Shown: in pieces, positions 380-7,817 of the stretch
Layout of the letters: each line of letters opens with the position of its first letter
Numbering within the stretch: position 1 is the first letter of the stretch
Virus record (IMG/VR): IMGVR_UViG_2541047945_000007
DNA from: a virus
Taxonomy: Duplodnaviria; Heunggongvirae; Uroviricota; Caudoviricetes
Length of the DNA: 7,817 bases
Direction: 5' to 3' (one strand)
The notes under the pieces: model-generated
Seen by the model: only the letters and a program-made list of their open reading frames with translations
The model's database searches: none
Told to the model about the DNA's origin: nothing
Translations under genes and position numbers: made by a program

Positions 380-2487
380 GTTTACCAGAGGGATTTGTTC
401 TGGATGAACAGCCTGATAACTCACAGCTTCCTGATGGCTTTGTGCTTGATGCCCAACCAGAACAGCAGCAATCTCCTTTGGTTTCACCAGAGGAAAATTC
501 CAGACAGGAAAATGTTGTTAATAATGCTAACGGTTTCGACCGTTTTATGTATGGCGTTCTCAGTGGATTGATGGATGTTGGTAAAGGTGTTGGTCTATTT
601 CAGGATATGACACCAGAAGAGCAAGCCGCAATTCAGTCTCTACAGCAGAAGTTAGCGGCAAAACCATCAACCGTACAAGATGTTGGTGAGTTCGTTGGAC
701 AAGCAGCACCATTTGTTAGTGGTGGTGGGATTATTTCTCAGGTTCCGAAAGGGGCGGCAAGGCTGGCTGCCGCCGCAGGGCTTGGTGCTGGAGAAGGGGC
801 TATTGTAGCCAATGGAACAAATAGCGATGTTGCTTCTGGAGCTGCTATTGGCGCTGTGGCTGGCCCTGTAGCAGAGATTGTTGGTCCAGCTCTTGGGAAG
901 ATTGCAGGAAAAATTAAAAATAGTGCCGGAGATATTTATCGCTCATCCGTAGGGATGGGTAGTAAATCATCTAAAGCAACGTTAAAGAAAGCTGCTGGCG
1001 CAATGGACAATAAATTTATCGGCGGGCAACGAGCTATTCAAGATTTCGCCGATGAAGTTAATCCTGATTTTAACGCGATAAATGCTATTCGTGAGCTAGA
1101 ACTGGAAAATTATGCCACTCCAGGCATGATCTCTAATAATCCTGCTGTCAGGGCTCTTGATAATGCAGTGGCAAGTCTCCCTGGAACAGAGATTAGTGAG
1201 GCGCATAAGCGTTTTATTACTGAATTAGGAAGAAAAGCTGATGAAATGATAACTTCATTTGGGGGAAGCCTTGATAAGCAACTGGTTTCTGACAGGCTTG
1301 CAGATAATTTTGATAAAACCATTTCATCATTACAAAATCAGTCAGATAACATCTACAACAAAATTGCCGAAAAGGTTCCTGTAAGAGACCGGATTGAGGC
1401 AACTAATACATTGAATTTTTTAGAGGATTTTGCTGATGATATAGGTGGAATTGATGAATTATCTCCAATAATGAAGCGGACATTGAACCGACTTGATCCA
1501 AACACCTTGCCAACGTATGGGCGTTTAGATCTCGCTAGAAAGCAGGTTGGGCAAGCTATTGGCAAAGGCTCTGGCCCATTCAAGGATGAAGAAACAGGTG
1601 TTCTTAAAAAGTTATATGCGGCTATAACAGATGACCAACAGGCTGTCGCAGAAAAATATGGCGCAGGGGAGTTATGGACGCTTGGTAAGGAGTTGGTAAA
1701 AACACGAAAATCCATTGAAGATGATGCCGTAACCGTTTTGGGTAGAAAACTTCAGCAATCAGCAATTCCAAAAGTTGAAAGTGCCGTTGTTAATATGGCA
1801 AAAGGAAACGGTGGTGACTTTAGGCAATTAATGAAGTCAATTCCAAAGGATATGCGGCAGGAAGTTGCGCTCACCTCAATGAATAAAGCATTTACCAGCT
1901 ATGCTAAATCACCAGGTCAGCAATTAGGGGTTGATGGATTTGTAAAATGGTATAACGGAATGTCACGCAATGGGGCCAATATGAAGGCTCTCCGTGATGC
2001 TATTGGCACAGATGCATCAAAGCGCCTTGATACGATTTATCAAGCAGCTAAGGCTATGAATAGACTCAATACTGGTAAGCAGTATGCTAGTAGTCTTGTG
2101 GATCAGCAAGTTAATAACTTTCTGAAAGAAAAGGGTAGTCTCGCAAAAATTTATGGAATAGCCTCAAAAGCTGCTGCGGCGGAAGGTATTACAAGCTTAT
2201 CTGGTCTTCCTGGTGTAGGTGCAACAGGGGTGATAACGTCAGCATTGATGTCAGGGAAAACAAGCAGGATAAAGGCTGCTGATGCTCTACTGTCTTCTCC
2301 TGAGTTTAAATCAATGCTATTTCGCCTGCAAAACGCACCTGTAGACAGAGCAGAAGTGAGACGCGTAATAGAAAGGAAACTGATGCAATCTGGGGCATTT
2401 AAGAGATGGGAGAAAACCTTATCAACAGATGAAGCAAAAACCATTGCCCGCACGGGGATTATTACATGGCTCGCTAGTGACAGTTAG
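364..2487 (+). CDS. Internal virion / DNA ejection protein (707 aa); P22 gene 16-like by position
   Basis: 2124-nt ORF; SD AGGAA at 353..357, 6 nt before ATG 364. N-terminal acidic tandem peptide repeat (LPEGFVLDEQP / LPDGFVLDAQP), a long Gly/Ala-rich hydrophobic segment (about aa 107-184), then a long predicted alpha-helical region. It lies immediately upstream of the immI region, as gene 16 does in P22. Functional assignment is from synteny and composition, not recognised sequence identity. Confidence 0.8.
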   Translation: MATNVGLPEGFVLDEQPDNSQLPDGFVLDAQPEQQQSPLVSPEENSRQENVVNNANGFDRFMYGVLSGLMDVGKGVGLFQDMTPEEQAAIQSLQQKLAAKPSTVQDVGEFVGQAAPFVSGGGIISQVPKGAARLAAAAGLGAGEGAIVANGTNSDVASGAAIGAVAGPVAEIVGPALGKIAGKIKNSAGDIYRSSVGMGSKSSKATLKKAAGAMDNKFIGGQRAIQDFADEVNPDFNAINAIRELELENYATPGMISNNPAVRALDNAVASLPGTEISEAHKRFITELGRKADEMITSFGGSLDKQLVSDRLADNFDKTISSLQNQSDNIYNKIAEKVPVRDRIEATNTLNFLEDFADDIGGIDELSPIMKRTLNRLDPNTLPTYGRLDLARKQVGQAIGKGSGPFKDEETGVLKKLYAAITDDQQAVAEKYGAGELWTLGKELVKTRKSIEDDAVTVLGRKLQQSAIPKVESAVVNMAKGNGGDFRQLMKSIPKDMRQEVALTSMNKAFTSYAKSPGQQLGVDGFVKWYNGMSRNGANMKALRDAIGTDASKRLDTIYQAAKAMNRLNTGKQYASSLVDQQVNNFLKEKGSLAKIYGIASKAAAAEGITSLSGLPGVGATGVITSALMSGKTSRIKAADALLSSPEFKSMLFRLQNAPVDRAEVRRVIERKLMQSGAFKRWEKTLSTDEAKTIARTGIITWLASDS

Positions 2488-2774
2488 TCAACTTTGGTTA
2501 TTTTGCCTTCTTTTTCTTGATGAACTTTGCATCCATCATCTTTTGATAGCCAAACTAAAAACTTTAAAACCTTAAACACAAGTACGGCTACTGCAATGAA
2601 AGCACCAATTGCAATTATTGCAAGCGAAATTATTTGCATTGGTGCTTTTAATGCAGGGAAAATAGTGTAAATGATCGCGAAAACAGTAATTATGAGGAAC
2701 CATCGCTTCACACCAACCTCCTTAGTTTTGTGCAGGATACCAGATGGTTTGGAGTGAGATAAAGGTTTGTCCAC
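2484..2774 (-). CDS. Small hypothetical membrane protein (96 aa from a GTG start; possible shorter form from an internal ATG)
   Basis: Minus-strand ORF with two strongly hydrophobic stretches (WFLIITVFAIIYTIFPAL and IISLAIIAIGAFIAVAVLVFKVL). Co-oriented with, and 64 bp downstream of, the PIN gene. GTG start with no clear SD and a T-rich coding strand mean the ORF could partly be a composition artefact. Its stop overlaps the convergent 707-aa gene stop. Confidence 0.4.
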   Translation of the reverse strand: MDKPLSHSKPSGILHKTKEVGVKRWFLIITVFAIIYTIFPALKAPMQIISLAIIAIGAFIAVAVLVFKVLKFLVWLSKDDGCKVHQEKEGKITKVD

Positions 2775-2794
2775 TTTTGGCTATAGCTTTATGT

Positions 2795-2823
2795 ATCCGT
2801 GACGGATGTAATTATCACGGATG
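2795..2823. other. Inverted and direct repeat cluster between the PIN gene and the small membrane-protein ORF
   Basis: ATCCGTGACGGAT (2795..2807) is a palindrome; ATCCGTGA (2795..2802) is the inverse complement of TCACGGAT (2815..2822); ACGGATG occurs twice (2802..2808 and 2817..2823). No T-run follows on either strand, so it is not a clean intrinsic terminator. Confidence 0.4.
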
Positions 2824-2838
2824 CATAAAAATTATATT

Positions 2839-3387
2839 TTAGTGTAATCTCTGATCGTCTGAATCGTGTAAGAACTCCATGAGACTTTGAACCGGAATTG
2901 GTTCTATTGATGATAATGTGAACACAGGAATATTGAGACTTTTGCAACGCTCAAACACTCCCTTATCATGAGTCCATACCTCGTCAGCATTAATTGCTCT
3001 TGCAATTGCTATTATTTGTCTGTCAAACTTAATTTTGTTTGCTGTACCTTCTGTGCTAATTTTCCTTAATTCTTTTAATGTTGGTATCGATGCGCATTCA
3101 ATAGCAGCCAACTCATCAAATGATACAGTTTCGAAGCACGATAACGATTTGATAACATTCAGTTTTTCTTGTTGGTAATCTTTATGGATTCCAACTAAAA
3201 ACTCCGCCAATACAGGAGTTGGAACGATGATTGTCCCGTTCTTGTTATCTATTCGATCAACAAGAGCTTCTGCTCTTCTTTTGGCATCTGGAATCTCAGA
3301 ACCAAGTATAGGGTCAGATAATCTATAATCGTGTTCTATATCTGATAGTAGGTATACCAGAATATTGGTATCTAAAATTACTCGCAA
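2839..3387 (-). CDS. PIN-domain nuclease, VapC-like (182 aa)
   Basis: N-terminus MRVILDTNILVY is the canonical PIN start. The four conserved acidic positions are present in the expected motifs: D6 (ILDTN), E62 (PVLAEF), D122 (KFDRQIIAIA) and D141 (WTHDKGVFER, matching the VapC T-x-x-D...FER C-terminal motif). Start is TTG at 3387..3385 preceded by a good SD (GAGGAA, 7-nt spacer); there is no in-frame ATG. The start overlaps the upstream gene's stop by 10 nt, indicating translational coupling. Confidence 0.8.
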   Translation of the reverse strand: MRVILDTNILVYLLSDIEHDYRLSDPILGSEIPDAKRRAEALVDRIDNKNGTIIVPTPVLAEFLVGIHKDYQQEKLNVIKSLSCFETVSFDELAAIECASIPTLKELRKISTEGTANKIKFDRQIIAIARAINADEVWTHDKGVFERCKSLNIPVFTLSSIEPIPVQSLMEFLHDSDDQRLH

Positions 3388-4097
3388 TTTATCTTCCTCA
3401 GAGTCCTAAGGATTGAATCAACATCGCGTTCCTCGGACCACTGATCTCCAGGAACTTGCTTGATAGCATTAATAGCATCCTTGAGTGATGATTTTTTGAG
3501 CAATACAAATGAAGTTATTTTTAGTTTCTTTAGCTCCCATTTGTTGTTCTTTTTTTCCCAGCACCCATCTCCTTTAACCCTAATATATTTGAATAGATGG
3601 GACCCAAGAGCTGCCGCCAAATCAGGGGTTGCCTCGCACTTGAATGTTTCACCGTTGGCTCCCTCAATACGCACAGGTATTGAGTTGTCTTTTCCGCCAA
3701 CACTGTATAGCCTTCCTTGAACTTCTGACGTTTTTGTTATGAGTAAAGGGATTGGCTCCTTTTTTACTCGCGGGAATGCGATAATGGTTGAGTGGTTTCG
3801 TCCGAGTAGTTTCGCTGAAAAACCATCATGCTCCAGTAAATTAACAATTTTTTGATACGCGGGTGATTTCTCTTTGGCTGAGAGAGAGGCCCTTGCTATG
3901 ACAGCGTTATAACAAATATCATTATCGACCCATGCATTTAAGTCAGCCGATCCTTCACTTACACAGTCGAAGTGAACAGAATCTGCAGAACCGTATAGAT
4001 CTACGAGAGCAGACATATACTTGACCAACTTAGCCATTGACAGCTGGCCAGGGGTGGTTCCGTCAAGTTTTAATGTGAGTCCATTGCTTTTTTTCAT
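3378..4097 (-). CDS. Hypothetical protein (239 aa), upstream partner of the PIN nuclease; no recognisable domain
   Basis: 720-nt minus-strand ORF starting 49 bp downstream of the mnt stop; AT-rich like the PIN gene; ends ...LRKINCE* with its TAA inside the PIN start region. No Walker, HTH or other motif I can identify. The SD is weak (GTGATGACAA then ATG). Confidence 0.7.
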   Translation of the reverse strand: MKKSNGLTLKLDGTTPGQLSMAKLVKYMSALVDLYGSADSVHFDCVSEGSADLNAWVDNDICYNAVIARASLSAKEKSPAYQKIVNLLEHDGFSAKLLGRNHSTIIAFPRVKKEPIPLLITKTSEVQGRLYSVGGKDNSIPVRIEGANGETFKCEATPDLAAALGSHLFKYIRVKGDGCWEKKNNKWELKKLKITSFVLLKKSSLKDAINAIKQVPGDQWSEERDVDSILRTLRKINCE

Positions 4098-4146: not shown

Positions 4147-4401
4147 CTATAACTTACTTTTGCTATAAATATTTTTCAGCGTTTCAAAGACCATCTTCTT
4201 AACAACGTCAGATTGCTCATCCGCGACTCGCTCAGCTTCGTCTCGATAGCCTACAATTGATGATGGCTTTGAGAGAGCATCCTGAACGATTTGTAATAAC
4301 TCAGAGTTCATTGACCTTCCGTTAGCCTCTGCTCTTAATTTCAATTTTTCTCTTACTTCCAAAGGCATACGGAAGTTAAAGTGCGGATCGTCTCTAGCCA
4401 T
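4147..4401 (-). CDS. mnt: Mnt repressor (ribbon-helix-helix), maintenance-of-lysogeny repressor of the immI region
   Basis: Translation MARDDPHFNFRMPLEVREKLKLRAEANGRSMNSELLQIVQDALSKPS... is nearly identical to P22 Mnt as I recall it. Divergent from arc, with the P22-type operators between them. Confidence 0.93.
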   Translation of the reverse strand: MARDDPHFNFRMPLEVREKLKLRAEANGRSMNSELLQIVQDALSKPSSIVGYRDEAERVADEQSDVVKKMVFETLKNIYSKSKL

Positions 4402-4423
4402 GCCATCACCCCAAGTTAGTGTA

Positions 4424-4452
4424 TTGACATGATAGAAGCACTCTACTATATT
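4424..4452 (+). promoter_or_regulatory. Pant-like sigma70 promoter (-35 TTGACA 4424..4429, 17-bp spacer, -10 TATATT 4447..4452)
   Basis: Consensus -35, 17-nt spacer and near-consensus -10 read directly from the sequence; location and arrangement match P22 Pant. Confidence 0.7.
4429..4449. promoter_or_regulatory. Arc operator (Oarc): ATGATAGAAGCACTCTACTAT
   Basis: The 21-bp sequence matches the P22 arc operator as I remember it from the Arc-operator structural literature, with TAGA/TCTA half-sites; it lies in the Pant spacer and overlaps the Pmnt -10. Confidence 0.7.
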
Positions 4453-4457
4453 CTCAA
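4429..4457 (-). promoter_or_regulatory. Pmnt-like divergent promoter (minus strand: -35 TTGAGA at 4457..4452, 17-bp spacer, -10 TATCAT at 4434..4429)
   Basis: Read on the reverse complement. Overlaps Pant back-to-back, as described for P22 immI. Confidence 0.55.
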
Positions 4458-4477
4458 TAGGTCCACCGTGGACCTAT
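4457..4477. promoter_or_regulatory. Mnt operator (Omnt): perfect 21-bp palindrome ATAGGTCCACCGTGGACCTAT centred on 4467
   Basis: Perfect dyad symmetry verified base by base; it lies just downstream of the Pant -10 (covering the expected transcription start), where Mnt represses ant in P22. Confidence 0.75.
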
Positions 4478-4491
4478 ATTGTGAGGTAAAT

Positions 4492-4650
4492 ATGAAAGGA
4501 ATGAGCAAAATGCCGCAGTTCAATTTGCGGTGGCCTAAAGAAGTATTGGATTTGGTGCGCAAGGTAGCTGAAGAGAACGGGCGATCTGTTAACTCTGAGA
4601 TTTATAAGCGAGTGATGGACAGCCTGAAGAGAGAGGGGATAACGGTATGA
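4492..4650 (+). CDS. arc: Arc repressor (ribbon-helix-helix), 52 aa
   Basis: [52 protein letters not shown] is near-identical to P22 Arc as I recall it. SD GAGG 7 nt upstream of ATG 4492. The longer ORF-track start at 4429 is rejected because it would cover the promoter and operators. Confidence 0.93.
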   Translation: MKGMSKMPQFNLRWPKEVLDLVRKVAEENGRSVNSEIYKRVMDSLKREGITV

Positions 4651-4868
4651 AGTTTATTGAGGTTGATGAGATTGGCTATGAGAATGCACTTGGTAGAGGT
4701 AAATCTTTAGTTAACGTTAATGGCATTGAGTCGATAAGGAGCGGTGAATTTACGGAGATCAGAATGATGTCAGGTGGAATCATTCCTTGCCGTGATTCAG
4801 TAGAGTCAATCAAAGCAAGAATGAGTGGTCAGTGGCTTTATAACTACAGTGACTTACAAAAACAGTGA
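4647..4868 (+). CDS. Hypothetical protein (73 aa) inserted between arc and ant
   Basis: ATG overlaps the arc stop (ATGA at 4647..4650); strong SD GAGAGGGG at 4628..4635. Nothing of this size lies between arc and ant in P22 as I recall it. No recognisable motif. Confidence 0.55.
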
Positions 4869-4930
4869 AGCCCCAACTGCGGGAACAGTCAGGGCTTCGG
4901 TTGTCAGTAAATCCGTGGAGAAAAACCAAC
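4857..4930 (-). ncRNA. Possible sar-like small antisense RNA covering the ant ribosome-binding site
   Basis: Minus-strand candidate promoter inside the ant start (-10 TATACT at 4942..4937, weak -35 TGTTCA 16 bp upstream) would start transcription near 4930, antisense to the ant SD (4917..4920). A minus-strand intrinsic-terminator-like hairpin (outer stem 4867..4873 with 4892..4898, inner stem 4876..4879 with 4886..4889) is followed on the minus strand by ACTGTTTTTG. The implied length of about 70 nt is comparable to P22 sar. This is inference only. Confidence 0.3.
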
Positions 4931-6011: not shown

Positions 6012-7817
6012 ATGACAGACATTATACCTAACATTATAGTTTCCATGCCTAATCAATTGTTCACAATGTCAAGAACATTTAAATCAGTATCGAATGGAAG
6101 CATTTATATCGGGAAGCCTGATACCGATCCGACTAATCCAGATAATCAAGTGGATGTTTATTTTGAGAATGAGAATGGAAAATATATTAAGGTTTCTCAA
6201 CCAATAAAAATAAGTCAAGCTGGACAACCTGTATTGAATGGTCAATTCGGTAAGTTTGCGACTATAAAAAATCACTCAATGGCGATTTTTGATGCGTATG
6301 GCTCTCAGCAGCACTATTTCCCAAATGTAATGAAATATGCTCCAGATCAGTTAAGGCAGGAATTAACAAATTTTTCTGGTGAAAATTCTCCTGGTTATGC
6401 TGACCCAAGTAATACGGTATGGGGAATTGATGCATTTTCTTCTAATGAATATGCGAAAAATAATGCTTTTTTCGGAGTTGGAGCAGGATCATCAATTATA
6501 GGTAACGAGTCAGATGAGGCTGTTGGTGCGGAAAATACTGGTATTGGTAGACGAGCCGGTGCAAGCCTTACAACAGGACAGCGCAATGTTCTACTTGGAC
6601 ATGAGGCTGGAGCACTGTTAACTACAGGTAGTTGTAATATTTTTATTTACGCTCAAAGTTCTTCTTATGCCAACTATAAAACCGGTAGTTATAATGTAGT
6701 GGTTGGTTATAACGCTGGCAAACTATTAACATCAGGAGAGAGAAATGTTTCAGTTGGTACGGATGCTGGGTCACGAACAACAACAGGAAGAGATAACGTT
6801 GCTGTCGGTCAAGCAGCAATGCAAAATAACTCAACTGGTGGTGGTAATACCTATATAGGAGCATTCTCTGGTGCTGAGACGGGAACTGGCGGTAATAATC
6901 TTGCTGCAGGTCGCTCTGCCTTATTTAGAAATGTGGATGGTTCTGGAAACGTTGCACTAGGACGTGAGGCTTCTCTTGGTTTGTCTTCATATGGGGAATC
7001 TCCCAATAATATTGTTGCTATAGGGTATCAAGCTGCATGGTCACAGAATGGATTAAATGGTGTTGTTTTTTGTGGGATGCAAGCAGGATATAAAGCAACA
7101 AAAATGAATGATTCAGTTCTTATTGGTAGGGCTTCCGGCTTTAATTTAACAACAGGAAGTGATAATGTTTTTGTTGGTGCAGCGTCAGGAGATAGTGAGA
7201 CTACTGGAACCCAATTAGTATATCTTGGACATCAAGCTGGTAGGTTTTTGATTGATGGGACACCTGCAAAAGAGAAATTAAATTGTGTAGCTTTAGGCTG
7301 CCGTGCCAGAGTTGGTGGAGATCATGAGATTCAGTTAGGAAATTCTTCTCAGACAGTTTATGTATATGGTACGGTGCAAACTCGGTCTGATGAGCGTGAT
7401 AAAGCAGATAAACGAATAATAGACGGAGAACTTGCTGTATCATTCGTCCGTGGAATAATCCCATATTTTTATAAGTGGGATTTTCGTGATGATTATATAG
7501 AAGAATACAATGTAAAAATTGGTGATGATTCTAATGGCAATCCGATTTTTGAAACTAGAATTCATCAACATGAAAAAGATGGCAGTAGAAAAAGGAAAAG
7601 AGAACATGCCGGGTATCTTGCACAGCAAGTTAAAGAATTACTTGATCGACTTGGAATTGACTGTGGTATATATCAAGATCATCTAGTAAACAATGGATGC
7701 GATGTAAAAACAATTGCCTACGAACAGGTTATACCGTTTGTTACAAAGGCTATAGATGTTGCATTTTCAAGGATAGAGGGGTTAGAGCAAAGATTGAACA
7801 AACTCGAAAACCTATAA
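6012..7817 (+). CDS. Tailspike / tail fibre protein (601 aa): P22-type N-terminal head-binding domain, Gly-rich repeat shaft, C-terminal intramolecular chaperone domain
   Basis: The first ~115 aa (MTDIIPNIIVSMPNQLFTMSRTFKSVSNGSIYIGKPDTDPTNPDNQ...HSMAIFDAYGSQQHYFPNVMKYAPDQ) align closely with the P22 gp9 head-binding domain as I recall it. GGAG at 6000..6003 precedes ATG 6012. The C-terminus contains SDERDK (S459 to K464) followed by about 140 aa including HAGYLAQQVKELL, typical of the S74-type self-cleaving chaperone of phage fibres. Complete ORF with TAA at 7815..7817. Confidence 0.93.
   Translation: MTDIIPNIIVSMPNQLFTMSRTFKSVSNGSIYIGKPDTDPTNPDNQVDVYFENENGKYIKVSQPIKISQAGQPVLNGQFGKFATIKNHSMAIFDAYGSQQHYFPNVMKYAPDQLRQELTNFSGENSPGYADPSNTVWGIDAFSSNEYAKNNAFFGVGAGSSIIGNESDEAVGAENTGIGRRAGASLTTGQRNVLLGHEAGALLTTGSCNIFIYAQSSSYANYKTGSYNVVVGYNAGKLLTSGERNVSVGTDAGSRTTTGRDNVAVGQAAMQNNSTGGGNTYIGAFSGAETGTGGNNLAAGRSALFRNVDGSGNVALGREASLGLSSYGESPNNIVAIGYQAAWSQNGLNGVVFCGMQAGYKATKMNDSVLIGRASGFNLTTGSDNVFVGAASGDSETTGTQLVYLGHQAGRFLIDGTPAKEKLNCVALGCRARVGGDHEIQLGNSSQTVYVYGTVQTRSDERDKADKRIIDGELAVSFVRGIIPYFYKWDFRDDYIEEYNVKIGDDSNGNPIFETRIHQHEKDGSRKRKREHAGYLAQQVKELLDRLGIDCGIYQDHLVNNGCDVKTIAYEQVIPFVTKAIDVAFSRIEGLEQRLNKLENL
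6459..7346 (+). repeat. Degenerate periodic coding repeat in the tailspike (about 14 units of 17-18 aa, consensus roughly G-x-x-AG-x-x-L-TTG-x-x-NV-x-x-G)
   Basis: Units read from the translation include RRAGASLTTGQRNVLLG, HEAGALLTTGSCNIFIY, YNAGKLLTSGERNVSVG, TDAGSRTTTGRDNVAVG, RASGFNLTTGSDNVFVG and AASGDSETTGTQLVYLG. The periodicity is at the protein level; the DNA units are diverged and not identical tandem repeats. Confidence 0.6.

Follow-up and report, generated by a model that had tools for sequence, protein, structure and literature searches.

We identified a conserved, mobile two-gene module on the minus strand of a 7,817-nt stretch of tailed-phage DNA (hereafter the window; Caudoviricetes, IMG/VR virus record IMGVR_UViG_2541047945_000007), in which a PIN-domain nuclease of the VapC class directly follows a larger basic protein, here called the partner. 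The pair is probably a VapC-type toxin with a non-canonical sensor- or antitoxin-like partner, carried as abortive-infection cargo, and is one among many predicted PIN-based systems. In identical Escherichia coli DNA, RefSeq names the two coding sequences "hypothetical protein" (WP_000749484.1, the partner) and "PIN domain-containing protein" (WP_001263856.1). A preliminary description of the window had put the pair forward as undescribed, and this assessment stands: no curated library or paper that we searched covers it, though an earlier experimental account may exist.

The two genes form one translationally coupled unit, as first proposed. The sequence confirms a 10-nt minus-strand overlap, which covers the partner's last codons and stop, and a TTG start for the PIN gene, preceded 5 nt upstream by a GAGGAAG Shine-Dalgarno sequence that lies within the 3′ end of the partner gene (Table 1). 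Translation of the PIN protein is coupled to that of its partner, from a weak start codon. A layout with the partner first, the PIN second, coupling between them and a weak second start is typical of a type II toxin-antitoxin (TA) module, and the junction geometry is kept in the pairs of other genomes. We surveyed 32 loci across the Gammaproteobacteria, namely the window and loci from Pantoea, Buttiauxella, Hafnia, Pectobacterium, Providencia, Enterobacter, Salmonella, Pseudomonas, Marinobacter, Marinobacterium, and Halomonas, and found an intact homologous PIN directly downstream of the partner in 29. In the intact pairs, the two genes overlap by at most 10 nt or lie at most 3 nt apart, so that the upstream partner overlaps or abuts the PIN gene in the order known from VapBC, and 28 of the 29 PIN genes start with TTG or GTG.

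The two proteins are also inherited together. Even distant partners, at 26–32% identity, still precede the same PIN subfamily, with hhalign probabilities of 100% for the PINs and 99.9% for the partners. Pairwise identities of partner and PIN are strongly correlated (r=0.94, with none of 2000 Mantel permutations as high), a value to which shared ancestry contributes, and mean pairwise identity is 0.474 for both proteins. Decay was seen at three loci. The PIN frame is broken beside an intact partner in one (L018); in another (L025), the PIN is truncated by an insertion beside a predicted type I restriction-modification (R-M) specificity gene (hsdS-like), again with the partner intact; and in the last (L031), both genes are broken. 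Among the 32 loci, no intact PIN stands beside a broken partner, a pattern drawn from these three decayed cases only, which fits a toxin role for the PIN. One Pantoea latae contig (NZ_MWUE01000022.1; L011 and L014) holds two diverged copies of the pair about 12 kb apart, with partners 70% and 57% identical to that of the window. An S24 cI-like repressor immediately precedes the second copy, and the arrangement suggests two neighbouring or nested prophages with one copy each.

The PIN protein matches Pfam PIN over the gathering score (E=4.1e-10) and has the Rossmann-like alpha/beta/alpha PIN fold. The catalytic set read in the preliminary description (D6, E62, D122, and D141) proved correct and structurally plausible, all four residues being invariant in an alignment of 41 homologues with identities down to 28%, as well as in 19 paired loci. 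Also invariant in the 41-homologue alignment are R38, P56, P58, F90, and the F121-D-R-Q-I125 motif. The best NCBIfam VapC equivalog, NF047863, scored 27.1 bits where 140 are required, and TIGR00028 scored 19.9 where 73.6 are; because these scores lie far under the cutoffs, we regard the protein as a divergent subfamily and not as an equivalog of a characterised VapC. A Pfam match to PIN_12 (E=0.025) was likewise under cutoff. About 50 aa longer than a classical VapC, the protein has a ~20-aa insertion after the first helix and a ~30-aa C-terminal extension, the latter modelled with low confidence and bearing a conserved P-x-P-x-Q motif. The exact PIN protein is listed as a "predicted novel defense gene" by DefensePredictor, with a log-odds of ~6.8, and the pair is not among the systems cloned in that study (Science 2026, PMC13092281).

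In lambda-like prophages of the Klebsiella type (L049–L051), gene callers start the PIN at an internal ATG, giving a 146-aa product. We considered these as orphan or short PINs and rejected this, since the starts are mis-called: the partner is present, and a TTG-initiated 181-aa frame is intact, overlaps the partner by 10 nt and includes the catalytic D6. The error is systematic and conceals the first catalytic residue in public annotations.

The partner belongs to a large family. Neither it nor 39 diverse relatives gave a meaningful Pfam, NCBIfam, PADLOC or PDB-sequence match, the PDB profile searches having been made from the single sequence, an alignment and a more diverse alignment; the one PADLOC match among the 39 relatives was a chance match (Cas2_II, E=0.022). 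The sole match in PHROGs is phrog_19868, of unknown function, and all relatives are named "hypothetical protein" in the databases. A profile search of 1.84 billion cluster representatives returned 1,579 proteins at E<=1e-3, 342 of them at E<=1e-30; almost all have 230–260 aa, and the family reaches as far as the Acidobacteriota. The preliminary description had recognised no motif in this protein, which holds for profile matches; the structure model, however, contains an OB fold. In the AlphaFold2 model (AF2; overall predicted local distance difference test score, pLDDT, 85.4), residues 113–200 form a closed beta-barrel of five strands, in which a helix separates strands 3 and 4; it resembles the OB folds of SSB, RPA, Stn1, and the anticodon-binding domain of lysyl-tRNA synthetase (LysRS) in Foldseek. 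This domain dominated both fold searches, which returned no fold for the N-terminal domain. The strand and helix order of the N-terminal domain, beta-alpha-beta-beta-alpha-alpha-beta-beta, suggests a ferredoxin-like plait, on a reading of secondary structure only.

Conservation within the partner is spread over both globular domains, where Y27, G36, H42, G49, S50, D91, G128, G135, G176, W180, and W187 are near-invariant among 138 representatives. In the same set, the C-terminal tail is variable except for W220 (83%) and R234 (97%). The OB domain has an isoelectric point (pI) of 9.4 and conserved aromatic and basic residues (Y131, R173, W180, and W187), both compatible with binding of ssDNA or RNA, and the basic partner as a whole contrasts with the acidic PIN (pI 9.15 vs. 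5.1). The N-terminal domain has its own cluster of conserved polar residues between positions 27 and 91 (window ~3825–4019), with H42 at 88%, S50 at 98%, and D91 at 96%, beside G49 and Y27; these residues could make up a catalytic, phospho-acceptor or ligand site.

The partner is not of the VapB type, as the preliminary description had argued: it is about three times larger, and neither Pfam and NCBIfam searches nor the model place an AbrB, ribbon-helix-helix (RHH), helix-turn-helix (HTH) or Phd DNA-binding domain in it. In the known VapBC systems, such as Shigella/Salmonella VapBC, Rickettsia felis VapBC2, and FitAB, an antitoxin of ~70–90 aa carries one of these domains, whereas the 239-aa partner combines an alpha/beta domain with an OB fold and has no sequence similarity to any VapB. 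VapBC modules are also autoregulated, while in prophages the partner and PIN apparently borrow their transcription from a repressor operon.

VapC-like PINs with non-VapB partners nevertheless have precedents in phage defence, namely VapKSC, DS-5, and HEC-03. In VapKSC, which protects against phages, a C-terminal helix of the antitoxin approaches the PIN active site, and activation is linked to single-stranded DNA (ssDNA) (Corbett lab, EMBO J 2026, PMC13373217). That system, however, has three genes, with a separate ssDNA-activated GHKL kinase (VapK) phosphorylating a STAS-domain antitoxin (VapS); the pair here has two genes, no kinase or STAS Pfam match was found in the partner or its neighbours, and the candidate nucleic-acid-binding module is an OB fold within the partner itself. 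HEC-03, a validated defence system, likewise joins a VapC-like PIN effector to a larger non-VapB protein, an ABC ATPase sensor (Payne et al. 2024 preprint). We rejected HEC-03 as an identity for the pair on account of this ATPase, which has no counterpart here, there being no NTPase or ATPase domain match in the partner in Pfam. DS-5 is a two-gene E. coli system of an uncharacterised upstream protein and a PIN whose catalytic residues are needed for defence (PMC13092281). Its partner is a 166-aa protein (WP_021513008.1, DUF5830 and AcrIF4-like) and its PIN a 376-aa PIN_12 protein, compared with 239 and 182 aa here; the hhalign probability between the two partners is 0.06% and the PINs are unrelated, and the pair was therefore rejected as DS-5. 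None of the VapKSC, DS-5, and HEC-03 partners is homologous to the partner described here, as tested directly by hhalign for DS-5 only. Two further candidates were set aside: the "PIN2" system of DefensePredictor consists of ImmA/IrrE and DUF4411, and a paper on "overlapping exclusion genes" of phage Fc02 concerns other genes.

With middling confidence, we propose that the pair is a mobile module expressed in the lysogen, with the PIN as a latent RNase toxin, the partner as its antitoxin and sensor, and infection aborted when the PIN is released. The larger, basic partner would be made first and in excess, and the PIN by coupled translation from its weak TTG. Many VapB antitoxins place a conserved arginine at the VapC active site (PMC13373217), and by analogy the C-terminal tail of the partner, with its near-invariant R234, may bind and mask the acidic active site of the PIN, as VapB tails do. 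The OB fold and N-terminal domain could sense an infection cue, probably a nucleic acid such as ssDNA or RNA of the phage, or else a nucleic-acid-binding protein. An incoming phage would bring this cue or stop the supply of partner, and the freed PIN would then cleave tRNA, rRNA or mRNA; translation would stop and the infection abort, which would protect the lysogen population and the resident prophage. We infer the defence role from position, architecture and the machine-learning prediction.

Several observations weigh against this proposal. The OB assignment holds at the level of fold only, with 12–20% identity to the matches, and OB folds bind proteins and sugars as well as nucleic acids. 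Neither protein matches any of the 5,027 models of known or candidate defence proteins in PADLOC-DB v2.0.0 at E<=1. Some distant members of the family lie among housekeeping genes, with no defence neighbours, and placement in a repressor operon suits a prophage-addiction role equally well. In DS-5, also a two-gene system with a non-VapB partner, deletion of the partner abolished defence and unleashed no toxicity (PMC13092281), so the DS-5 partner acts as a co-factor and not as an antitoxin.

A co-factor role of this kind is the main rival to a toxin and sensor-antitoxin, and one that we consider unlikely. The pair would then be an obligate two-subunit nuclease, the partner being a required activator or specificity subunit whose OB fold recruits RNA or DNA (for example, the tRNA anticodon loop, as in class IIb aminoacyl-tRNA synthetases) or senses the phage, switching on an inactive PIN. 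Besides the behaviour of the DS-5 partner, the Foldseek match to the anticodon-binding domain of LysRS speaks for it, as does the fact that tRNA is the typical target of VapC cleavage (PMC13092281, PMC13373217). So does the conservation of the partner, which equals that of the PIN, something unusual for a simple, fast-evolving antitoxin, and extends to many near-invariant residues in both the N-terminal and OB domains. Neutralisation, on the other hand, is better suited by partner-first coupling to a weak start and by the conserved arginine near the C-terminus; the DS-5 proteins are themselves unrelated to the pair; and in the few decayed loci the PIN may be broken alone, but never the partner alone.

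The distribution of the pair marks it as cargo. Matches to the flanks of the window occur in about 260–270 of 5,426 complete E. coli genomes, and only 32–33 carry the pair, a minority in keeping with the earlier suggestion that it is variable cargo and not a fixed gene of P22-like phages. No isolated Escherichia or Salmonella phage in a 50,697-record collection carries it; P22 and its relatives match the flanks only, and P22 and 47 Salmonella phages have the same immI circuit without the pair. The module is also special neither to this slot nor to P22-like phages but is a widespread mobile pair in the Gammaproteobacteria. It lies directly downstream of, and in the same orientation as, the maintenance repressor in at least three unrelated prophage types: after mnt in P22-like prophages of E. 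coli (the window) and Salmonella salamae (L035–37); after an S24 cI in lambda-like prophages of Klebsiella, Pseudomonas, Providencia, Pantoea, and Halomonas, and in the sequenced P. aeruginosa phage Ostro; and after an HTH cI (HTH_3), opposite YdaS/YdaT, in Rac-like prophages of Enterobacter and Leclercia. This repressor-adjacent position is that of rexAB in lambda. As with lambda rexAB and P22 sieA/orf59a, the cargo sits directly after the maintenance repressor or within its operon and is probably expressed in the lysogen; RexAB and SieA are membrane-based, however, while the pair is a soluble nuclease with its partner, and there is no sequence or fold relationship. Outside prophages, the pair occurs beside Fic and insertion sequence (IS) elements, Mrr, a methyltransferase-HNH gene with NYN, or a predicted type I R-M specificity (hsdS-like) gene.

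These addresses bear on the next rival after the co-factor role, that the pair is a plain addiction module, stabilising a prophage or island by post-segregational killing with no part in phage defence. We judge this less probable again. Its TA-like architecture is as such a module would have it, chromosomal sites outside prophages among housekeeping genes are compatible with it, and the pair survives in an IS-flanked prophage remnant of E. coli LC-1302-2020. Repeated independent capture at the repressor-adjacent slot of unrelated prophages is instead a hallmark of superinfection-immunity cargo, a two-domain 239-aa partner with an OB fold exceeds what neutralisation needs, and the DefensePredictor log-odds are positive. 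Addiction and defence are not mutually exclusive roles.

The LC-1302-2020 remnant (NZ_CP091756.1, 3060–3071 kb; L001) is about 8 kb long, lies between appA and torT, and is bounded by IS3-family and IS2 elements. Its gene 16 is truncated and its mnt-partner-PIN segment is intact and 100% identical, so that this segment has outlasted the decay of the phage.

Returning to the module as a toxin with a sensor-antitoxin, the same findings allow a more specific and tentative version, which we hold to be rather doubtful. The partner may be a single-polypeptide sensor-antitoxin of a new type, in which the OB fold and N-terminal domain directly bind ssDNA or RNA intermediates of phage replication or recombination, or a phage ssDNA-binding protein, and thereby pull the arginine tail off the VapC site; sensing and neutralisation would be fused, with no kinase, protease or transcriptional control, and temperate phages of several families would repeatedly have installed the module in a rexAB-equivalent slot as general superinfection immunity. 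If the broader proposal of a toxin with an antitoxin-like partner holds, a large family (~1,600 clusters at 50% identity, with no Pfam, NCBIfam or PADLOC model) would be the cognate partner of a VapC-type nuclease, adding an OB-fold-based type beside recent non-VapB partners such as VapS, and P22-like, lambda-like, and Rac-like phages would have converged on one lysogen-expressed slot for it. Hosts include an E. coli O25b:H4-ST131 isolate, and the pair occurs in Klebsiella and P. aeruginosa prophages; in such clinically important lineages it could affect the host range of phage therapy. With just two genes, it would also be a convenient small model for work on the coupling of a PIN toxin to a nucleic-acid sensor.

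In the window, the pair lies in a P22-like immI region that runs from a gene 16-like DNA-transfer gene through a 75-aa transmembrane (TM) open reading frame (ORF), the PIN, the partner, mnt, arc, a 73-aa ORF with sar RNA, and ant to the tailspike. Two blocks of P22 sequence frame the replaced segment: window 4175–4638 has 87% DNA identity to P22 mnt-arc, and 34 nt at 2709–2742 are identical to the start of P22 sieA and its ribosome-binding site, with everything between the blocks differing from P22. In the annotation of P22-pbi, the order is Pmnt, mnt, orf59a, t_mnt, and then PsieA and sieA. This order, together with the flanking identities, implies that the pair replaces orf59a inside the mnt operon. 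The preliminary description had assigned the pair to the equivalent of the sieA slot; its location between the gene 16-like gene and mnt is as stated, but the pair occupies the orf59a position and the small TM ORF that of sieA.

Three features make co-transcription with mnt likely. Divergent and overlapping Pmnt-like and Pant-like promoters, matching the consensus at 10/12 and 11/12 positions, are arranged as annotated in P22-pbi; a scan of the sequence that separates mnt from the partner gene found nothing resembling a terminator; and a stable RNA hairpin follows the PIN stop at the position of P22 t_mnt, without a U-tract. We therefore consider it likely, from sequence features, that mnt, partner and PIN are transcribed together in the lysogen, with mnt as the first gene of a leftward operon. 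The hairpin is a probable 3′ end or stabiliser of this transcript, and could act as a terminator, a processing site or a 3′ stabiliser.

Probable co-transcription with mnt, next to the arc/ant/sar circuit, could also point to a function internal to the phage, with the PIN and partner processing prophage or host transcripts and so tuning immI (mnt/arc/ant) or the lysis-lysogeny decision. We regard this as highly improbable, given that the pair follows different repressors (S24 cI and HTH_3) and occurs outside prophages, that P22 and the 47 Salmonella phages keep the same circuit without it, and that it is present at only ~33 of the ~260 E. coli loci whose flanks match.

Table 1. Position of the gene pair, the domains of the partner and neighbouring features in the window.
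Feature	Coordinates	Strand	Details
Partner gene	3378..4097	-	ATG start, 239 aa, pI 9.15
Partner N-terminal alpha/beta domain	3762-4097 (aa 1-112)	-	AF2 model
Partner OB-fold barrel	3498-3761 (aa 113-200)	-	AF2 model, pLDDT ~90-95
Partner C-terminal helical tail	3381-3497 (aa 201-239)	-	AF2 model, lower confidence (pLDDT 60-73)
PIN nuclease gene, VapC class	2839..3387	-	TTG start, 182 aa, pI 5.1
Translational-coupling junction	3378..3399	-	Shine-Dalgarno GAGGAAG 3393-3399, TTG 3385-3387, 10-nt overlap
Stable RNA hairpin directly after PIN stop	2787..2830	-	-20.7 kcal/mol, z=-5.7, 0/200 shuffles as stable
mnt, Arc/Mnt ribbon-helix-helix repressor	4147..4401	-	Pfam Arc E=5.7e-27, Repressor_Mnt E=4.8e-13
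Pmnt-like promoter	4429..4457	-	TTGAGA-17-TATCAT, consensus scan
Pant-like promoter	4424-4452	+	Consensus scan; divergent from and overlapping Pmnt-like promoter
75-aa TM ORF	2487-2711	-	Longer GTG frame 2484-2774
73-aa ORF between arc and ant	4647-4868	+	phrog_11805
sar RNA	4864-4930	-	Rfam RF00262, 87.7 bits
Tailspike	6012-7817	+	P22 head-binding N-domain, E=1.5e-50

Between the gene 16 side and mnt lies a hotspot for cargo of the TA or defence kind, which contains sieA/orf59a in P22 and, in a P22-like prophage of E. coli E50, a Panacea-domain pair. At the E50 locus (NZ_CP121199.1, L056 2878–3745), a Panacea-domain protein and a hypothetical protein make up a PanA-type toxin-antitoxin-like pair, and two tandem Arc/Mnt-family genes are also present.

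The 75-aa ORF beside the pair (WP_000832789.1, phrog_7294) has two predicted TM helices and no Pfam match. We considered it as a truncated SieA and rejected this for want of similarity; it could instead encode some other small exclusion factor of the membrane. The ORF does not belong to the module, as it is absent beside the pair in two Salmonella salamae prophages.

On the other side of mnt, the match to sar RNA, which regulates ant in antisense, confirms that the P22-type immI circuit is intact. The 73-aa ORF between arc and ant is of unknown function, has no Pfam match and lies where P22 has no gene; the E. coli RefSeq record annotates it too, and some Salmonella salamae prophages have it. 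The tailspike joins its P22 head-binding domain to a receptor-binding part of non-P22 type, with a Peptidase_S74 intramolecular-chaperone domain at its end; such mosaics are typical of host-range swapping.

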